This document shows, piece after piece, positions 3,689-31,370 of a stretch of 34,719 nt of DNA. Source of the DNA: a virus; UHGV virus genome UHGV-0210061. The stretch is one strand, 5' to 3'. Both the position numbers and the translations under genes were made by a program. The notes beneath the pieces are model-generated. The model had not been told where the DNA came from, searched no databases, and worked only from the letters and a program-made list of their open reading frames with translations. Position 1 is the stretch's first letter; the number at the start of each line of letters is the position of its first letter.

Positions 3689-3757
3689 CACTTTATAAAC
3701 ATTACATTTTCACTATTTGTTACCAAGATAGTGAAAACTGCGCCGGAGGGCTTTCTT

Positions 3758-4738
3758 ATGTCGATTAAGAAGCTCGATGATGGTCGCTATATGGTGGACA
3801 TTAGACCGCGCGGGGCAGCAGGACGCCGCATCCGCAGGACGTTTGACAGAAAGGCAGAAGCTACCGCGTTTGAGCAATACACGATAGCGAACGCCAGCCA
3901 AAAAGAATGGACTGGTAAGCGCGCCGACCGGCGGCCTTTAAGTGAGTTGCTCGATGCCTGGTGGCGGTACCACGGGCAAAACCATGAAAACGGCAAAAAG
4001 GAATTCAATCACCTTTTGAAGACAATAAGCGGCCTCGGCGATCCCGCCGTTAGTCGGTTAAGCAAAAGAGATTTAATGGATTACCGCTCAAGCCGTTTGA
4101 ATGCCGGGATCAAGGCATCAACGATTAATCGTGAGATGTACCGATTATCCGGCATGTTTACGAAGTTAATACAGATTGAGGAATTTAGCGGGCAGCACCC
4201 CGTTAACGGGCTTCCACCACTGGCGGAAGAAAACCCGGAAATGACATTTCTGGAGCGGGAAGAGATCAGCAGTTTGTTGAACGTTCTGGAGGGGGATTAT
4301 CTCTTAGTTGCCCTGTTATGCCTGAGCACTGGCGGGAGATGGTCAGAGGTCGCCACGTTGAAGCGGTCGAATATCGTCAACTGCCGCGTTACTTTCCTGA
4401 AGACAAAAAATGGGAAAAAACGGACGGTGCCAATCTCTGAAGAACTGGAAAAAAAGGTGAAAAAAGAGGCCAGCGGGAAGCTGTTCAAAGTGGATTATGA
4501 GAGGTTCTGTAAGATACTGCGGGAGGTGAAGCCGGATATCCCGGAAAACCAGGCAACGCATATTCTACGCCACACCTTTGCAAGCCATTTCATGATGAAC
4601 GGCGGGAATATCATCGCACTGCAACAGATCCTGGGGCATGCGAATATTCAGCAAACGATGGTCTATGCGCACCTGTCGCCTGACTACCTGCAAAACGCGG
4701 TGACGTTGAACCCGTTACAGGGGGGAGTTGCGGCATAA
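3758..4738 (+). CDS. int: tyrosine integrase (P2 Int family)
   Basis: From ATG 3758 (GGAGGG SD) the protein MSIKKLDDGRYMVDIRPRG... aligns closely with P2 Int (MAIKKLDDGRYEVDIRP...). Catalytic region HILRHTFASHF...MVYAHL. The tracker's GTG at 3731 is probably not the start. Confidence 0.9.
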   Translation: MSIKKLDDGRYMVDIRPRGAAGRRIRRTFDRKAEATAFEQYTIANASQKEWTGKRADRRPLSELLDAWWRYHGQNHENGKKEFNHLLKTISGLGDPAVSRLSKRDLMDYRSSRLNAGIKASTINREMYRLSGMFTKLIQIEEFSGQHPVNGLPPLAEENPEMTFLEREEISSLLNVLEGDYLLVALLCLSTGGRWSEVATLKRSNIVNCRVTFLKTKNGKKRTVPISEELEKKVKKEASGKLFKVDYERFCKILREVKPDIPENQATHILRHTFASHFMMNGGNIIALQQILGHANIQQTMVYAHLSPDYLQNAVTLNPLQGGVAA

Positions 4739-4744
4739 AGTGCG

Positions 4745-4965
4745 CCCCGGAGTGTCCATATACTGTCCACACTCCGGGAAATTTGAAAGCGTTCCAAACC
4801 TTCACAACTCTTTTTAAGTCGTTGTTTTGATTTGAATGCAGAGGTAAGTGATTGATAAAAAAAACCCCCACATCATGTGGGGGAAGACAGGGATGGTGCG
4901 CTAAGGAAGCCGCCAGCCCACTGATAAAAAAGGATTTTTATCAAACAGTGTCCACACTGTGACCA
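4745..4965. other. putative attP region: inverted repeat CCGGAGTGT...ACACTCCGG (4747-4778) carrying tandem TGTCCA(T/C)A repeats, and a third TGTCCACA copy at 4950-4957
   Basis: Immediately downstream of int, where P2 has attP; the complementary strand reads TGTGGACA-like direct repeats, reminiscent of P2 Int arm-type sites (from memory). Core not identified. Confidence 0.4.
4857..4883 (-). terminator. rho-independent terminator (minus strand)
   Basis: CCCCCACA-tca-TGTGGGGG hairpin; on the minus strand it is followed by T8 (plus-strand A8 at 4857-4864). Confidence 0.65.
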
Positions 4966-4972
4966 CATCGAC

Positions 4973-4997
4973 AAAAAAGCCACGGTTATCCGTGGCT
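4973..4997 (-). terminator. rho-independent terminator of the cargo operon (minus strand)
   Basis: AGCCACGG-ttat-CCGTGGCT hairpin followed, on the minus strand, by T6. Lies 20 nt downstream of the stop at 5019. Confidence 0.7.
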
Positions 4998-5018
4998 TAT
5001 CTTCATTACCTATCAGCT

Positions 5019-5915
5019 CTATTTCCAGCCACAGGCTTGCTGTAACGGTTTCAATGCGCTATTGAGTCCCGCCAAATCGAATGTCACAGACACCGGGCTT
5101 TCGTTGTAAGGCGTTATCCTGGCGAACATCTTATCGGCTTTCACCATGGCTTTAACAAAATCAATATCTCGCCCACTGTAGAAAACAGCCTTTGTATCAG
5201 TAGAAATCGACCATCGCCTTTCCACGGCTTTTTGCTTATCAAACCGGTAAAGCATGCTAGTTTCTTCTAGCCCCAGATATACATCCCAATTAATAAAAAC
5301 TTCGGTTTTCTTTTCACGACAAGCTACAAAAATCGTTGGTGTAACGGTCTCGCCGTATGGTGTTCTGATGGAATCATTGCTAGGTAGCATTAAAACCACA
5401 TTTTTAGAGTCATCAACCGGTGAAGTTGTTATATGAGTCAGCCATTTTCCAGGGTTCGGGGCTGACTCAACTGCGGAAGACGCAACATTCTCTGGTTCAT
5501 CTTGAGGGAAAAGCTTGTCATAACACGCTAATCGTTTGGTGCCATTTATTTCTGAACGGCATTCAAGGAGCTTTTCTTTACTGATAGCCTCGTTTTTAGC
5601 GGCCTCTTGGCCTGAAGATATGGTTTTGGTCAAATTTGTTGGTTTAAATGTTGGTGAGAAAAATCTGTCGTAGCAGGTCAGGCGGCCCTCGTCCGTTTTT
5701 TCATCAGGGCATTGGTCTCTACTTTCAAATTTTTTAGCACTCTTCGTTCGCGTCGGTGGAATTGAATTATCGTAACAAGAAAGACGCTGAGAGCTATCCT
5801 CAATCGCTCGACACTGAAGAACCCCTTTAAAGTCCTTTGGCTCCTTTTGAGCATGAGCCGCCAAAGACACGGAAGCGGCTAAAAATGTCACAATGAAAAC
5901 AAAACTTTTCTTCAT
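5019..5915 (-). CDS. secreted/periplasmic protein with three tandem Cys-pair repeats (C-x9-10-RL[STA]CYD) and a ~170-aa C-terminal domain
   Basis: ATG at 5915 gives signal peptide MKKSFVFIVTFLAASVSLAAHA|QKE. Repeats QCRAIEDSSQRLSCYDN, QCPDEKTDEGRLTCYDRF, ECRSEINGTKRLACYDKLF. AAGGGA SD; start 4 nt after the upstream gene's stop. Visibly lower GC than the phage core. Confidence 0.7.
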   Translation of the reverse strand: MKKSFVFIVTFLAASVSLAAHAQKEPKDFKGVLQCRAIEDSSQRLSCYDNSIPPTRTKSAKKFESRDQCPDEKTDEGRLTCYDRFFSPTFKPTNLTKTISSGQEAAKNEAISKEKLLECRSEINGTKRLACYDKLFPQDEPENVASSAVESAPNPGKWLTHITTSPVDDSKNVVLMLPSNDSIRTPYGETVTPTIFVACREKKTEVFINWDVYLGLEETSMLYRFDKQKAVERRWSISTDTKAVFYSGRDIDFVKAMVKADKMFARITPYNESPVSVTFDLAGLNSALKPLQQACGWK

Positions 5916-5919
5916 GAGA

Positions 5920-6252
5920 TCATCCCTTTGGTCTTGTAAGAAACACCAGTATTCCAATGACAATGTCGCCAATAACCCAAATAGTGCCAATGGCCATCAT
6001 TCCCAGACCAGCCCCTAAAGCAGCCCCAGCCCTTTCCGCTTCCGATGTGGCATGATTAATAACTTCACCGGTTCCGCCCAAGCCTTTGAAGAGGGCGTAG
6101 ATCATGAAGATGTTAAATAGAATGAAGATCCATTTTATAAGTAGCCCAAAAATTGAGCGGCGCGGTTTTCTTAGTTGTTTGCCGCAGGAAGGGCACCTCA
6201 ACGCTGAATCACTCACTTCTTTCCGGCATTCCGGGCAGCTAACTAAAGCCAT
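5920..6252 (-). CDS. zinc-ribbon inner-membrane protein (CPEC...CPSC followed by two TM helices)
   Basis: Three in-frame ATGs (6267, 6258, 6252); GGGGA SD best placed for 6252 (MALVSCPECRK...). TM1 SIFGLLIKWIFILFNIFMIYALF, TM2 GAALGAGLGMMAIGTIWVIGDIVIGILVFL. Confidence 0.65.
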   Translation of the reverse strand: MALVSCPECRKEVSDSALRCPSCGKQLRKPRRSIFGLLIKWIFILFNIFMIYALFKGLGGTGEVINHATSEAERAGAALGAGLGMMAIGTIWVIGDIVIGILVFLTRPKG

Positions 6253-6305
6253 AACCATTATCCCCATCGTTACTTATTGGTTTTTATTTGTAACAAAACA
6301 TTTTG

Positions 6306-6333
6306 ATTTTATCGGATCATTCTCAATTGACAA
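6306..6333 (-). promoter_or_regulatory. sigma70-like promoter for the cargo operon (TTGTCA-N16-TAAAAT on the minus strand)
   Basis: Plus-strand TGACAA at 6328-6333 and ATTTTA at 6306-6311; about 55 nt upstream of the first cargo ATG. Confidence 0.45.
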
Positions 6334-6341
6334 GAAATATA

Positions 6342-6357
6342 CCCCGCATATGCGGGG
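6342..6357 (-). terminator. perfect palindrome CCCCGCATATGCGGGG just downstream of the ogr stop; probable ogr terminator
   Basis: 16-bp perfect hairpin followed on the minus strand by TATATTTCTT (weak U-tract). Confidence 0.4.
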
Positions 6358-6363
6358 TATATT

Positions 6364-6612
6364 TTAAACTGCGAGGGTAAGCTGATCGTTGCCGTAGTGC
6401 GATGCAGGAAACGCATCTGAAGGGATGAAGCCCGGCGGTAACTTTTCACGCGGTGTGCGCTTCGTTACCAGTTTTTCAACGCTGTTTAGCGTGGTGAAAG
6501 TGATACTACATTCAAAATTCTGGCACTGGTGATAATGCCGAACGGTGGTATTGCTTAACGAGCGACTGGTACGCGTTTTTGCAACGGCACCACAAACAGG
6601 GCACTTAAACAT
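6364..6612 (-). CDS. ogr: Ogr/Delta-family zinc-finger late-gene transcription activator
   Basis: MFKCPVCGAVAKTRTSR...VRHYHQCQNFECSITFTT closely parallels P2 Ogr (MFHCPLCQHAAHARTSR...ERYHQCQNVNCSATF). GGGAGG SD. Confidence 0.85.
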   Translation of the reverse strand: MFKCPVCGAVAKTRTSRSLSNTTVRHYHQCQNFECSITFTTLNSVEKLVTKRTPREKLPPGFIPSDAFPASHYGNDQLTLAV

Positions 6613-6657: not shown

Positions 6658-7812
6658 CTAACTCTCACTTTCTGCAATCCATTCAGGTATTCTCGCCTCA
6701 AGCTCCAGCCGGGTTTTGAATCCGCTATCGTCTACCGTATGCCCCACCTTCGCGATTATCCAGTCCTGCTTGTCTATCGCATCTTTAAATCCCGCTACGG
6801 TTCCGTGCATCTCCGGATAAAGATCCGCGCGCCCATAAGCCAGGGTTAACGAAAATTCAGCTGCACCGCGCTGAAGCTGCTGCCACTTTGCGGCGGCCGC
6901 GCGCTGTGCCGCCATTTCGCTGCTGTATGTTGTGCGGAGTACAAAAACATTACCATCTTCCCCGGCGATATAATCGCCCTCCCGGCTGCTGCTGCGCGGC
7001 TTCTTCTCCGTGGTTTTCTTGCGCTTCTTCACCGTGACTTTTTTCTTTTTGCCGAAGTTCAGATCCAGCCAGTAAGCCTGCACGCCGGTGTAAGCGTCGC
7101 GGTCTGCAATACGGAACGAATGGCGGTCTGCACTACCGCGCGTAATGGCGAACTCCGGCAACGCTTTGCCGTTTGCACTAACGCCACCACCCGGCAGAAT
7201 GAACAACAGGCAACCGTTTTTCACCGTGGCGATGGCACCGAGAATATCCGCCATGCGCGTCAGGAATGACATGTCGCTTTCCTGTGTCTGGTCGGCATGA
7301 TCTATTTCGGCGCTCATCAGTTGCTCAGAAATGACCGGCGTCAGCTTGTAACGGTGAGCGATAGCCGACACGATTCGCTCTACCGTCACGTCATGCCACG
7401 ATACCTCGCGCTTGATATTGAATTCATCACGAAAATCCGCGCTACGGGCGGTTATCTCGATGCGGTCTGGCGGCCCTGAATGCGCGATCTCATCAACAAT
7501 ATAAATCCCCTTGTAGATTAGCGGCTCCCCCTGCCAGCCGAGCGATAACGACAACTCGGCACCACGAGGCGGCAGCTCAATATCGCCCTGGCTGTCATCA
7601 ACGGTGATCGTCAGCTCGTCGGCGTTAAATCCGCGATTATCCGTCAGCTCCAGAGAAATCATTTTTTCATCCAGCACGGTCAGCGCCTTGCCGCCAATCA
7701 GGACATTAAACGCCGGGATGCGCGACAACTCATCCTGGTATTTTTTGAAGTCCTGAGCGCCCGCATTCAGCAGGCTTTTTGCATTGTCGATAGTGTCTGT
7801 GTTCAGCGCCAT
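6658..7812 (-). CDS. D: tail protein D (P2 gpD family)
   Basis: 384 aa versus P2 D 387 aa. Position next to ogr. GGAGGG SD. Confidence 0.85.
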   Translation of the reverse strand: MALNTDTIDNAKSLLNAGAQDFKKYQDELSRIPAFNVLIGGKALTVLDEKMISLELTDNRGFNADELTITVDDSQGDIELPPRGAELSLSLGWQGEPLIYKGIYIVDEIAHSGPPDRIEITARSADFRDEFNIKREVSWHDVTVERIVSAIAHRYKLTPVISEQLMSAEIDHADQTQESDMSFLTRMADILGAIATVKNGCLLFILPGGGVSANGKALPEFAITRGSADRHSFRIADRDAYTGVQAYWLDLNFGKKKKVTVKKRKKTTEKKPRSSSREGDYIAGEDGNVFVLRTTYSSEMAAQRAAAAKWQQLQRGAAEFSLTLAYGRADLYPEMHGTVAGFKDAIDKQDWIIAKVGHTVDDSGFKTRLELEARIPEWIAESES

Positions 7813-29068: not shown

Positions 29069-29785
29069 TTACCTTATAACGCTAGGAAACTCTGCAGATT
29101 TCTTTATTACGAGCCGCCTTGAATGCAACCTCCTAATTATTTCATTCAGGTATATTTGTGGTATATCAATAAAATCCTGATCGTTCTCATAGCTATCATT
29201 CACAAGAACCTGCTGTTCAATTGCATTAATTGTATCAATATCTTCAGTACCGTACGACTCAACAAATGAATATCTTGATAATTTGCAGGTAATAATGGTC
29301 TCGAGTCCTTTATCTGTAAGGTATGTATACGCATAATAATTCCCTACCTTCTCTATTTCTATGTTATCACTGTATCGATCAAAGTGTGGATGGATAATAG
29401 AGAATTGTTTTTCATCCTGCGGGTATTTATATCTTAAAAACTGGTTTTCATCCATCAATGGGATCTTATTGCTTTTAAATCCATTGCACTCCTTACAGGC
29501 TAAAATTAAATTCAATGGTTGAAATAAAAACTGTGGGTAACGATCCTTTGGTAAAATATGATCAATGTCCCACGATAAACCATGAGAAGTATGATTATGC
29601 ATTCTGCAATAAGCACATAAATGCCCTTGTTCTTTTAAATAATGCTTTCTTATCTCTTTTCGGATAATAGATATAGTTCCCTTCGTCCCCTCCCATACTC
29701 GAAAATCCACCCGATCATATCGATTGTACTTTAATATAAACTTTCTACTTTTTTTTGAAAACTTTATTTTTTTTGAAATCCTCAT
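29069..29785 (-). CDS. HNH endonuclease (PtuB-like)
   Basis: CAYCRMHNH…DIDHILPKDRYP…NLILACKECNGFKSNK (CxxC…HNH…DH…N…CxxC). ATG at 29785 with GAGG SD, 5 nt after the ATPase stop. Roughly 30% GC. Confidence 0.8.
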   Translation of the reverse strand: MRISKKIKFSKKSRKFILKYNRYDRVDFRVWEGTKGTISIIRKEIRKHYLKEQGHLCAYCRMHNHTSHGLSWDIDHILPKDRYPQFLFQPLNLILACKECNGFKSNKIPLMDENQFLRYKYPQDEKQFSIIHPHFDRYSDNIEIEKVGNYYAYTYLTDKGLETIITCKLSRYSFVESYGTEDIDTINAIEQQVLVNDSYENDQDFIDIPQIYLNEIIRRLHSRRLVIKKSAEFPSVIR

Positions 29786-29792
29786 AAAAACC

Positions 29793-31370
29793 TCACATAG
29801 AGAACATGCCAATGGCCTGCTTTAACAAATGTTCAATGGTATTATTCTCGCTCCTTTCGCTAAAAACATCCTTATTTAATTCAAACATTTTAATTGCTCT
29901 ATCTAAAAATTGAATTTCATTTCCAGACAATTCTTTTCTGATATTTTGCTTTGCAATTATAGTGGTAAGCATTCTTATGACATATTCGTTATGTTCTCCG
30001 GGATAATTTAACGTTGCAAAAAGTTGGTAGTCTGATGATTTACCCCTAACAATGGACCCAGGAATAGCACCCTGATCACTACCAAGAATTGCTACACTAG
30101 AGTTATCCCTAGGGAGACTACTCACAACCTGGGGGGAATGCGTTGCAATAATAAAATGGCATCCTTTGTAATTAATGAAACATCGCTGTAACTCAGGAAT
30201 GATTTTTTTTTGCCACGCAGGGTGCAAGCTTATCTCTGGCTCGTCAATCATGATTATAGTGTTATCTTCAATCTCACTATTAATCCTCAACAGCATAAGA
30301 AAAATACATAACTCACCGGAACTCATTTTATCCGATTCTACCAAATGATCACCTTTCTTGAATGTTAGATGTTCAACATTTACTATTCTCATTTCTGATA
30401 AAAATAACATATCCTTTATTAAACCTTCCTCGAGAATTGTATTCTCATCAAAAGAAAAGGTTACAAATGGCGAACCCATCACAAAAAACATACCATCCTC
30501 ATCATCACGAAAATGACTCCGAGTTTCTTCATCAAGTAATCCACAAAAATATTTCAGCATTCTCTCTGTAGTATGAATCATTTCATCAGTTATAACTGTT
30601 GCATTCCCTTCTTCATCATGAGGGACTATCTTCTTCAAACTTTCTTTAAATTTTTCCAAATCCTTTATGCCGTCTAGATTTGCGCCTGCGAGATAATGAT
30701 TCACTGTTAAAACTAAAGTAACATTTTCAGTCACTCCAAAACTTCGCATAAAAGCCATAGAACGAATATAATTTACTTTATCAGTAAATAGCAGTTTTAT
30801 GACCTCATGACCTAAAACTTTATTAATAAAACTATCATCAGAAAAACCACCGAATTTTAAAACATCTTTAGAAAGAGATAGGTTTTTATACTTATCAGGA
30901 TCATGAAAAGGGAACGAATGAGATTGACCAAAACCTTCAATAAAACGATTAAATAAGCTATTGGAAACACATATTAATTTCGGATGCAATTCTTTATCTG
31001 CAACTGTAATTGACGAAGAAACACTTCCGTCATCATGGATTGTTAAATCATTTAATATGCCGCCCACATAATAGCTGAAACTTAATGATGAAAAAGGAAT
31101 ACTTGTCCTTAAAATATGTTTTGAATACTTAAATTGTTTTTGAAACTGTTCTTCGTGAACAGGATAAAGCTCAATAAAAAAAATACAGAATGACATTATC
31201 TCCAACGCTCGACTTTTTCCAACTCCATTCTTCCCTGTAAGAACAGAAAAATAATTATCATCATTTTGGATTACAGGATCATGAACTAAACTCACAGATA
31301 AATCATCCACGACAAAACTGTTAATAAGCACTCTACTATTCATAATTAACTCACTTAAATTTAAATTCAT
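29793..31370 (-). CDS. ABC/OLD-type ATPase (AAA_15/21-like; PtuA-like)
   Basis: Walker A LTGKNGVGKSR; Walker B IIMIDEPEISLHP; H-loop region IIATHSPQVV. 525 aa. Very AT-rich. Starts 60 nt after the gene A stop. Confidence 0.8.
   Translation of the reverse strand: MNLNLSELIMNSRVLINSFVVDDLSVSLVHDPVIQNDDNYFSVLTGKNGVGKSRALEIMSFCIFFIELYPVHEEQFQKQFKYSKHILRTSIPFSSLSFSYYVGGILNDLTIHDDGSVSSSITVADKELHPKLICVSNSLFNRFIEGFGQSHSFPFHDPDKYKNLSLSKDVLKFGGFSDDSFINKVLGHEVIKLLFTDKVNYIRSMAFMRSFGVTENVTLVLTVNHYLAGANLDGIKDLEKFKESLKKIVPHDEEGNATVITDEMIHTTERMLKYFCGLLDEETRSHFRDDEDGMFFVMGSPFVTFSFDENTILEEGLIKDMLFLSEMRIVNVEHLTFKKGDHLVESDKMSSGELCIFLMLLRINSEIEDNTIIMIDEPEISLHPAWQKKIIPELQRCFINYKGCHFIIATHSPQVVSSLPRDNSSVAILGSDQGAIPGSIVRGKSSDYQLFATLNYPGEHNEYVIRMLTTIIAKQNIRKELSGNEIQFLDRAIKMFELNKDVFSERSENNTIEHLLKQAIGMFSM

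Follow-up and report, generated by a model that had tools for sequence, protein, structure and literature searches.

A VasI-family protein and a zinc-ribbon membrane protein encoded together at the ogr-attP junction of a P2-family phage: a candidate envelope module of Klebsiella lysogens

The 34,719-nucleotide virus genome UHGV-0210061, the whole of which is referred to here as the window, is that of a P2-family phage and reads, in its excised order, D, ogr, cassette, attP, int, C and cox. The subject of the present study is the cassette, an insert of 1.35 kb between the late activator gene ogr and the attachment site, which consists of a promoter-like site, two minus-strand genes 4 nt apart and a terminator (Table 1). 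Gene 1 encodes a small zinc-ribbon membrane protein and gene 2 an exported protein of the VasI family, and the best explanation of what we have found is that the two form a mobile envelope module, carried in an accessory slot of a temperate P2-family phage of Klebsiella. The closest deposited relative of the phage as a whole is Klebsiella phage 3LV2017, at approximately 82% nucleotide identity. In phage P2, everything from the ogr terminator through the Int P arm to the attP core fits within approximately 100 bp of ogr and no gene intervenes, whereas here approximately 1.47 kb separates the ogr stop codon (6364-6366) from the attP core, and it is on this ground that we regard the insert as real. 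Its GC content is 43.6%, as compared to 53.1% in the rest of the window. A preliminary description, made from the sequence alone, had pointed out the low GC content, the empty interval in P2 and the tight coupling of the two genes, and all of the features that it listed are indeed present at or near the positions it gave. The anatomy of the cassette can be considered secure; its function, on the other hand, we infer from context.

Table 1. Features of the cassette and its surroundings in the window.
Feature	Position	Strand	Remarks
Integrase	3731..4738	+	Pfam Int_N and Phage_integrase; lies across attP; downstream boundary of the insert
attP core, 45 bp	4854..4898		contains a second hairpin and T-run (4865-4883)
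Cassette intrinsic terminator	4977..4998	-	9-bp stem with 6 GC pairs, then TTTTTGT
Gene 2, 298 amino acids	5019..5915	-	starts 4 nt after the gene 1 stop
Gene 1, 110 amino acids	5920..6252	-	open reading frame extends to 6267 (5920-6267)
Sigma70-like promoter, TTGTCA-N16-TAAAAT	6306..6333	-	upstream of gene 1; 10 of 12 positions match
Palindrome ATACCCCGCATATGCGGGGTAT with T-rich tail; likely ogr terminator	6338..6360	-	directly after the ogr stop; read from the sequence
ogr (late activator)	6364..6612	-	Pfam Ogr_Delta, E 7.7e-18; upstream boundary of the insert
D	6658-7812	-	

The likely start of gene 1 is the third ATG (6252), since GGGGA lies 8 nt upstream of it and since nearly all homologues are 110 amino acids long. 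The product begins with a C4 zinc ribbon (residues 4-27, with Cys6, Cys9, Cys20 and Cys23 in the pattern CPEC...CPSC), continues through a basic stretch into a hairpin of two hydrophobic helices (approximately 34-105) and ends in an invariant T-R-P-K. An AlphaFold2 model, with a predicted local distance difference test score (pLDDT) of 82.5, has the same layout, in which a small beta ribbon leads into a long hairpin of helices (34-67 and 71-105). Pfam detects only the ribbon (Zn_Ribbon_1, 25.9-26.0 bits, cut-off 25), and the protein as a whole falls into phrog_6586 of the PHROGs database (E 1.3e-36). Conservation in the family is strong, and the residues concerned, i.e. N47 and D96 (at least 90%), a glycine-rich face and T106 (invariant in 37 sequences), are all situated in or beside the membrane helices. 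Eight lysine or arginine residues precede the first transmembrane helix, one lies in the loop and TRPKG closes the protein, a distribution that, by the positive-inside rule, would place the zinc ribbon and the two ends of the protein in the cytoplasm. The product is predicted to be a small inner-membrane protein whose hairpin projects slightly into the periplasm.

What is more, the membrane part of gene 1 resembles DrpB (YedR), a chromosomal divisome protein of E. coli for which localisation to the septum, suppression of ftsEX and activation of Rcs are the experimental phenotypes. Against the NCBIfam model for DrpB (NF038392), gene 1 gives an end-to-end match with E 1.9e-4 and 21.7 bits, which is below the cut-off of 50; hhalign, comparing the gene 1 family profile with E. 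coli DrpB, returns a probability of 70% and E 4e-5 over 76 columns, setting the invariant T106-R-P-K opposite T89-R-P-R of DrpB; and phmmer with DrpB as the query matches representatives of the gene 1 family down to E 2e-7. Precomputed matches to PF28000 (DrpB) exist for 16 of 66 gene 1 homologues, those seen in gene context being marked weak. Since a local Pfam scan of gene 1 found no match to PF28000, the link is based on these four lines of comparison. An exhaustive hidden Markov model (HMM) search with the gene 1 profile yielded 412 cluster representatives at E <1e-10, many of them approximately 98 amino acids long and aligned with the profile in its membrane part only; six of these relatives were read in sequence and, as in DrpB itself, the zinc ribbon is missing. 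Gene 1 and DrpB are alike in having about 100 amino acids, two membrane helices and a short periplasmic turn, and can be aligned across the entire membrane domain, including an N-terminal R-S-x-x-G-K and the C-terminal T-R-P-K/R. They differ in that gene 1 has a zinc ribbon added at its N-terminus and is prophage cargo. In our view it is probable, from these comparisons, that the membrane domain of gene 1 is distantly homologous to DrpB, gene 1 itself not being a member of that family.

Gene 2 opens with a Sec-type signal peptide (MKK, a hydrophobic core and a cleavage site between AHA and Q). Three C-x11-C units, each ending in R-L-x-C-Y-D, occupy residues 35-49, 69-83 and 119-133, and are followed by two further cysteines, Cys199 and Cys295. 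The protein is built of helical hairpins with disulfide-type cysteine pairs, set on disordered linkers, and of a C-terminal beta-sandwich (approximately 155-298) with the VasI/IalB fold, for which the AlphaFold2 model gives block-mean pLDDT values of approximately 84-96, mostly above 90. The product is, on these sequence features, predicted to be exported by the Sec pathway and soluble in the periplasm. The zinc ribbon and two transmembrane helices of gene 1 and the signal peptide, repeated units and two extra cysteines of gene 2 had all been described before, and we confirm this picture. The lipoprotein Ltp of phage TP-J34, which had been cited as a precedent, fails on the one feature tested: there is no lipobox in gene 2, the first cysteine being residue 35, and given this and the cleavage site, an Ltp-like reading was rejected.

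The preliminary description had recognised no named family in gene 2, and in this respect it needs to be corrected. Namely, gene 2 matches the Pfam family VasI (PF11319, formerly DUF3121) with 88.8 bits against a cut-off of 26.5, in three matched stretches, with residues 118-297 aligned to positions 1-184 of the 184-position model, and all of its 298-residue homologues carry this domain. Identical or nearly identical proteins are labelled 'type VI secretion system-associated protein TagO' by NCBI in hundreds of Klebsiella genome contigs. Like gene 1, it already has its PHROG family (phrog_1848, E 1.9e-36), with the function label unknown, and in the C. rodentium prophage phiSM, ORF1 is a VasI-family gene that has been catalogued as 'virulence' cargo (PMC6456863). 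VasI genes in prophages are, therefore, not new. The homologues come in three sizes, approximately 210-218, 247-250 and 294-298 amino acids, which correspond exactly to one, two and three hairpin units, and most of the more distant VasI relatives, with approximately 200 amino acids, have a single copy. R128, L129 and D133 are invariant in an alignment of 14 sequences, and in one of 81 sequences C119, R128, L129, C131, Y132 and D133 each reach at least 90% conservation. A sequence-based profile search of solved structures gave nothing significant (best E 0.43). IalB, the Bartonella invasion-associated locus B protein (PDB 3dtd), shares 15% sequence identity with gene 2 and lacks its cysteine-stapled hairpin repeats. 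Matches of the gene 2 model in BFVD have the same beta fold in uncharacterised proteins at 8-15% identity, in the virulent T4-like Escherichia phage RB16, Klebsiella phage KP15 and Aeromonas phage 65.2, and also in Vibrio phage VH7D.

As for the signals around the two genes, the palindrome at 6338-6360 occupies the place where a rho-independent terminator is annotated behind ogr in P2; it is likely the ogr terminator of this phage and would separate transcription of the cassette from that of ogr; a hairpin scan did not flag it because its loop is shorter than 3 nt. As read from the sequence, the sigma70-like site follows just after this hairpin. The motif TGT-N12-ACA marks the Ogr-dependent late promoters of P2, and as no such site was found in reading the sequence upstream of gene 1, an Ogr-dependent late promoter for the cassette was rejected. 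At the other end, two tandem terminators had been proposed to insulate int. The first, at 4998..4977, stands as the terminator of the cassette. The second, at 4883..4865, lies inside the 45-bp att stretch, which has a perfect (100%) match in an intergenic site on the chromosome in approximately 3,400 of 5,426 E. coli genomes; for this reason it belongs to the att core, and is probably a host terminator carried in attP, instead of an insulator built by the phage.

That the two genes travel together had been put forward as something to look for at the ogr-att junction of other P2-like prophages, and the pair is in fact widespread there. Of 80 loci in IMG/VR with a gene 2 relative, 66 are P2-type. 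The zinc-ribbon gene is the immediate upstream neighbour of the VasI gene in 61 of the 80, and all 61 belong to the P2-type set. The gene order and the 4-nt spacing are kept in all 61, while gene 2 falls to approximately 50-60% identity, and in most IMG/VR loci the VasI gene is the very end of the predicted prophage. In K. pneumoniae, the order D, ogr, zinc-ribbon gene, VasI gene, attR was found in five of the five places read, adjoining yccJ/wrbA, and the same order holds for the one-repeat form of VasI, adjoining fieF/pfkA. The three-repeat Klebsiella prophages thus adjoin yccJ/wrbA, whereas the one-repeat Klebsiella prophages, together with a related E. coli prophage, adjoin fieF/pfkA. In a genome scan the pair was carried by eight species-representative genomes. 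The exact proteins of the two genes are present on 74 and 433 contigs, the named members of both clusters all being Klebsiella.

At the same junction, the VasI gene is found without the zinc-ribbon gene in Pectobacterium and, in the opposite orientation, in Salmonella. The Salmonella variant adjoins a hok/gef-type toxin gene (L013 7906-8046), and in Pectobacterium (L011 7995-8629) a HicA/HicB pair stands between the VasI gene and chromosomal fieF. The slot itself is variable across hosts, as E. coli P2-like prophages at fieF hold different cargo in it; in E. coli C 236-04A (L002 3250-3927), for example, it is occupied by a gene for a 225-residue hypothetical protein on the opposite strand. A hotspot survey with iLund4u has reported a third P2 hotspot, between tail protein and CI, an interval that takes in the ogr-attP slot. 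The accessible part of a 2026 survey of P2 defence hotspots names four sites (GpA-GpQ, int-att, int-GpA and the tail genes), and in that part the zinc-ribbon/VasI cassette is not mentioned.

Both genes are under purifying selection, with dN/dS of 0.01-0.04 for gene 1 and 0.09-0.12 for gene 2, and are therefore real coding genes. Within gene 2, omega is 0.01-0.05 in the beta domain and 0.18-0.28 in the somewhat relaxed repeat and linker half. The idea that gene 2 evolves fast was rejected, as its apparent speed is mostly due to drift of the linkers and to exchange of the cassette. The dS values of the cassette are not coupled to those of its neighbours D and ogr (at locus L025, for instance, D has a dS of 0.19 and the beta domain one of 1.6), which argues that the cassette has been exchanged between phage backbones.

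Relatives of gene 1 are known in Pasteurellaceae (Rodentibacter) and in a metagenome-assembled genome (MAG) of Synergistaceae. In P2-family prophages of Rodentibacter, as well as in metagenomic prophages, they come immediately after a cI-type repressor and are followed in each case by a gene for a different small signal-peptide protein, once with an Excalibur domain. A genome scan for VasI relatives gave 66 loci, 56 of which are not P2-type. We took a census of the neighbours of VasI at 62 distant loci, scanning the two genes on either side (216 proteins) against Pfam and considering the 25 commonest families in each list. Among the upstream genes, Peptidase_S24 and HTH_3 are commonest (7 proteins each), corresponding to CI/LexA-type repressors, and phage integrases come next, with 2 upstream and 3 downstream of VasI; the lists also include Cas_NE0113, N6 methylase, Mrr and SIR2. 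Other VasI relatives lie among methylase/Vsr, DUF262 and Cas_NE0113 genes, and others again are in MAGs of phyla outside Proteobacteria, such as Atribacterota and Elusimicrobiota. In V. cholerae, a VasI-family protein of 201 amino acids (P0211, annotated TagO; L167-L169), distinct from the 227-residue VasI of type VI secretion, VCA0118, is encoded in a superintegron cassette beside intI/rplT, among ParE/Phd and acetyltransferase cassettes. Such contexts are typical of cargo expressed in lysogeny, and the earlier view that the position of the cassette is typical of lysogen-expressed genes gains support from the relatives of both genes behind CI-type repressors and from the reported third P2 hotspot.

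Zinc-ribbon membrane proteins of other architectures also stand beside distant VasI genes: at L088 and L120 the protein has two transmembrane helices and a C-terminal ribbon, in an Atribacterota MAG (L148) a zinc ribbon with four transmembrane helices, and an Elusimicrobiota MAG (L153) has such a neighbour as well. These neighbours are mostly not homologous to gene 1; an HMM search for gene 1 homologues beside the distant VasI genes gave one weak case (L153, E 2e-5). Their recurrence in distant lineages is the best argument that VasI and zinc-ribbon proteins work together. A second family of membrane proteins beside distant VasI genes occurs in the Atribacterota MAG (L148 5054-5719) and in Marinobacterium (L117 6594-7007), with the motif ...FVGVF.PIVS.P.MGN.NYF.NG.GDG... 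and, in the Atribacterota copy and not in that of Marinobacterium, an N-terminal zinc ribbon. Finally, a single protein of 360 amino acids (P0275; L170 3001-4083), on one phage-like MAG contig of 4.9 kb, has a VasI domain (31-206) fused to a TolA/TonB C-terminal domain (215-357), a possible hint of a Tol/Ton partnership.

Does the TagO label mean that gene 2 belongs to a type VI secretion system (T6SS)? Gene 2 and the VasI/TagO proteins of the T6SS, such as VCA0118, share the sequence family PF11319, a signal peptide, an N-terminal C...RLxCYD and a C-terminal beta domain that is aligned end to end with the model. They differ in that gene 2 scores 71.8 bits on the T6SS equivalog TIGR03360, well under its cut-off of 124.2, is carried on a phage rather than in a T6SS cluster, has the motif tripled where most distant relatives have one copy, and has a zinc-ribbon membrane protein as a partner. 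Ten relatives tested on TIGR03360 all reach between 25 and 78 bits, likewise below the cut-off. No T6SS genes were seen beside the VasI gene at the loci inspected, including prophages of Klebsiella, Pectobacterium and Salmonella, and no T6SS family is among the 25 commonest per list in the census of the 62 distant loci. These results show the phage-borne branch of the family to lie outside T6SS clusters. VCA0118 itself is predicted to be exported, and is not needed for secretion of Hcp and VgrG-1; yet amoebae are not killed without it, and it contributes to the killing of E. coli, by a mechanism that is listed as unknown (PMC3166118).

What could such a cassette do for the phage or its host? 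The observations above support the earlier suggestion that the two genes are autonomous cargo, directed to the envelope, in an accessory slot of P2-type phages, and we consider protection of the lysogen against other phages, i.e. superinfection exclusion or defence at the level of adsorption or DNA entry, to be its most likely role, with a probability of roughly 0.45. The cassette would be transcribed in the lysogen from its own sigma70-type promoter, and its products would act at the envelope to guard the cell from other phages. The periplasmic VasI-type protein would be the working or recognition part and the membrane protein encoded by gene 1 its anchor or transducer, which may act by switching on envelope-stress signalling (Rcs/Psp), as over-produced DrpB does. 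We favour envelope cargo expressed in lysogeny because the cassette sits in an accessory slot at the edge of the prophage with a promoter-like site and terminators of its own, because relatives follow repressor genes or are found in integron cassettes and defence-rich islands, and because of the predicted periplasmic and inner-membrane locations, the exchange of the cassette and the precedent of SDIC4.

The T4 proteins Imm and Sp, which are membrane and periplasm-facing phage proteins that block the entry of later phages, offer an analogy of layout only, and no relationship in sequence or structure is expected. SDIC4, from the Serratia LptG-YjiA islands, comes closer: this module, too, has two genes, and its key component, SDIC4B, is a small exported protein with a reported VasI-like fold, which alone gives 10-200-fold protection against phages (10.1101/2024.01.28.577318). 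The modules are alike in this layout; SDIC4, whose protection is modest, is likewise located outside T6SS clusters, for the most part in Klebsiella, Salmonella, Enterobacter and E. coli. As to the fold, SDIC4B is VasI-like by the HHpred statement of that paper, and gene 2 is VasI/IalB-like by its model. Unlike the cassette, SDIC4 is associated with BrxR, and SDIC4A, unlike gene 1, has a signal-peptide-like N-terminus and is no zinc-ribbon membrane protein. Using the sequences of SDIC4A and SDIC4B given in the supplementary plasmids of the same paper (pGM249 for SDIC4B), we obtained no similarity between gene 2 and SDIC4B (BLASTP E 2.2; hhalign probability 0.35% with the profile of 81 sequences) or between gene 1 and SDIC4A (E 0.32); neither SDIC4 protein has a Pfam match, SDIC4B not even to VasI, and no BrxR/WYL gene adjoins the cassette. 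Membership of SDIC4 was, accordingly, rejected. In supplement 3 of that paper, pGM248 is labelled SDIC3 and printed with the SDIC4B open reading frame only, which is probably a mix-up in the table.

That said, several points weigh against a role in exclusion or defence. A PADLOC scan of both cassette proteins gave no match, and the SDIC4 precedent amounts to a reported analogy of fold, since similarity of sequence or profile is lacking. No signature of an arms race was found, dN/dS being well below 1 throughout. Each gene also occurs without the other, so that the two may not work together. The proposed sigma70-like promoter is present as described, and is no commoner than expected by chance: in a stretch of 2.1 kb, 2 promoter-like sites were found as compared to a mean of 2.7 in shuffled sequence, and we therefore regard it as plausible and not statistically distinctive. 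The relationship to DrpB is weak, with 21.7 bits and an hhalign probability of 70%. Moreover, the only genetics on a true VasI, VCA0118, leads to T6SS killing and not to phage defence (PMC3166118), and single T6SS genes could be hidden from our census, since the neighbour lists comprise the 25 commonest families.

The main rival to lysogen protection starts from gene 1. Namely, a DrpB-like gene 1 could activate Rcs, perhaps also Psp, through RcsC, and so change the capsule, motility or biofilm of the Klebsiella lysogen, with gene 2 tuning or sensing in the periplasm and phage resistance arising as a side effect of the capsule. In multicopy, DrpB turns on the Rcs phosphorelay without the need for RcsF, via the periplasmic domain of RcsC, with Psp also being induced, and the change T89A in DrpB abolishes Rcs activation (PMC11709261). 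The membrane domain of gene 1 matches DrpB over its whole length, with the invariant T106 opposite that very T89, and the named carriers of both exact proteins are all Klebsiella, in which capsule synthesis is under Rcs control. Still, the homology is distant, with the DrpB score of gene 1 below the NCBIfam cut-off, and the effect of DrpB is a multicopy phenotype whose physiological meaning is unknown (PMC11709261). The relatives of gene 1 in Rodentibacter and Synergistaceae also speak against it, and lone VasI-type genes in integrons and prophages of many phyla would be left unexplained. In sum, we find this reading rather unlikely as an account of what the cassette is for, with the reservation that it overlaps with defence, given that capsule changes alter susceptibility to phages.

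Would it be simpler to suppose that the genes have no joint function, being independent cargo genes that happen to be neighbours, or that they serve the lytic cycle, in the timing of lysis or passage through the envelope? Each gene does occur without the other, and proteins of the IalB/VasI fold are found in the virulent T4-like phages RB16 and KP15. Yet the spacing and order of the pair have been kept in 61 loci despite the divergence of gene 2, and VasI genes stand beside zinc-ribbon membrane proteins of other architectures in distant phyla; as to a lytic role, the late operons do not include the cassette, which is placed behind the ogr terminator, and no Ogr-type site was seen upstream in reading the sequence. 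On balance, we hold both variants to be improbable.

To the same degree we doubt that the database label is correct after all, such that gene 2 would be a T6SS accessory supplied by the phage, raising or altering the T6SS killing of its host, and of all the readings this is the one least supported by context. Klebsiella strains commonly have a T6SS, gene 2 is a significant member of the Pfam family, the P2-type proteins score higher on TIGR03360 than relatives from marine islands (44-78 as compared to 25-38 bits), and VCA0118 is needed for T6SS-dependent killing though not for secretion of Hcp. On the other side stand the scores of all ten relatives below the cut-off, the census of neighbours, the relatives in MAGs of non-proteobacterial phyla (Atribacterota, Elusimicrobiota) and a recurrent partner that is a zinc-ribbon membrane protein and no T6SS gene; what is more, the function of TagO/VasI is still given as 'unknown' in a 2026 review (PMC13584744).

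Very improbable, finally, is an immunity to non-phage weapons that cross the envelope (T6SS attack, R-type tailocins or colicins), in which gene 2 would neutralise an agent delivered to the periplasm: gene 2 is predicted to be periplasmic and has conserved cysteine pairs of the disulfide-forming kind, its family is tied to T6SS loci in some bacteria, and one VasI protein is fused to a domain of the Tol/TonB machinery that colicins and filamentous phages exploit, but no toxin gene adjoins the cassette, immunity proteins are usually specific and paired with their effectors, and the fusion is a single protein on one MAG contig.

Going beyond the cassette, one may speculate that VasI and small zinc-ribbon membrane proteins make up a widespread, so far unrecognised two-part guard of the envelope, which would detect or block what pierces it, such as phage tails, tailocins and T6SS spikes. 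Such a guard would be carried on prophages, integrons and islands across many phyla and would signal inward through the membrane partner (via RcsC in enterobacteria); the VasI of the T6SS would then be a copy that has been domesticated to protect or coordinate the envelope while the cell fires its own T6SS. As a whole, this broader proposal is distinctly doubtful in our own estimate.

UHGV-0210061 carries further accessory genes apart from the cassette. In the classical gpA-gpQ hotspot there is a complete Septu-type defence pair (29069-31370, minus strand), consisting of PtuA, an ATPase of 525 amino acids (PADLOC E 7e-70), and PtuB, an HNH protein of 247 amino acids (E 7e-64). The early region encodes a D12-class (Dam-like) N6-adenine methyltransferase and a protein of the Rv2179c-like 3'-5' exoribonuclease family (188-1327 and 1165-1743, both on the minus strand); as listed, these two open reading frames overlap by approximately 160 nt, so that one of the starts is probably further downstream.

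What is new here is, in our judgement, best filed as a candidate prophage envelope cargo built on a VasI-family protein, the family and its carriage by prophages being already known. For surveys of virulence and of the T6SS, it follows that the TagO label on the phage-borne branch of the family is probably misleading, since this branch is mobile-element cargo with no visible tie to the T6SS. VasI has been without a mechanism since 2011, and its recurrence in mobile contexts, behind repressors and in integron cassettes, and next to zinc-ribbon membrane proteins suggests a hypothesis that is both concrete and cheap, namely protection at the level of the envelope. The DrpB-like partner, in turn, provides a specific read-out (Rcs/Psp) as well as a natural context in which DrpB-type proteins might act. 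If true, a Klebsiella prophage module that alters capsule signalling or phage entry would have a bearing on phage therapy.

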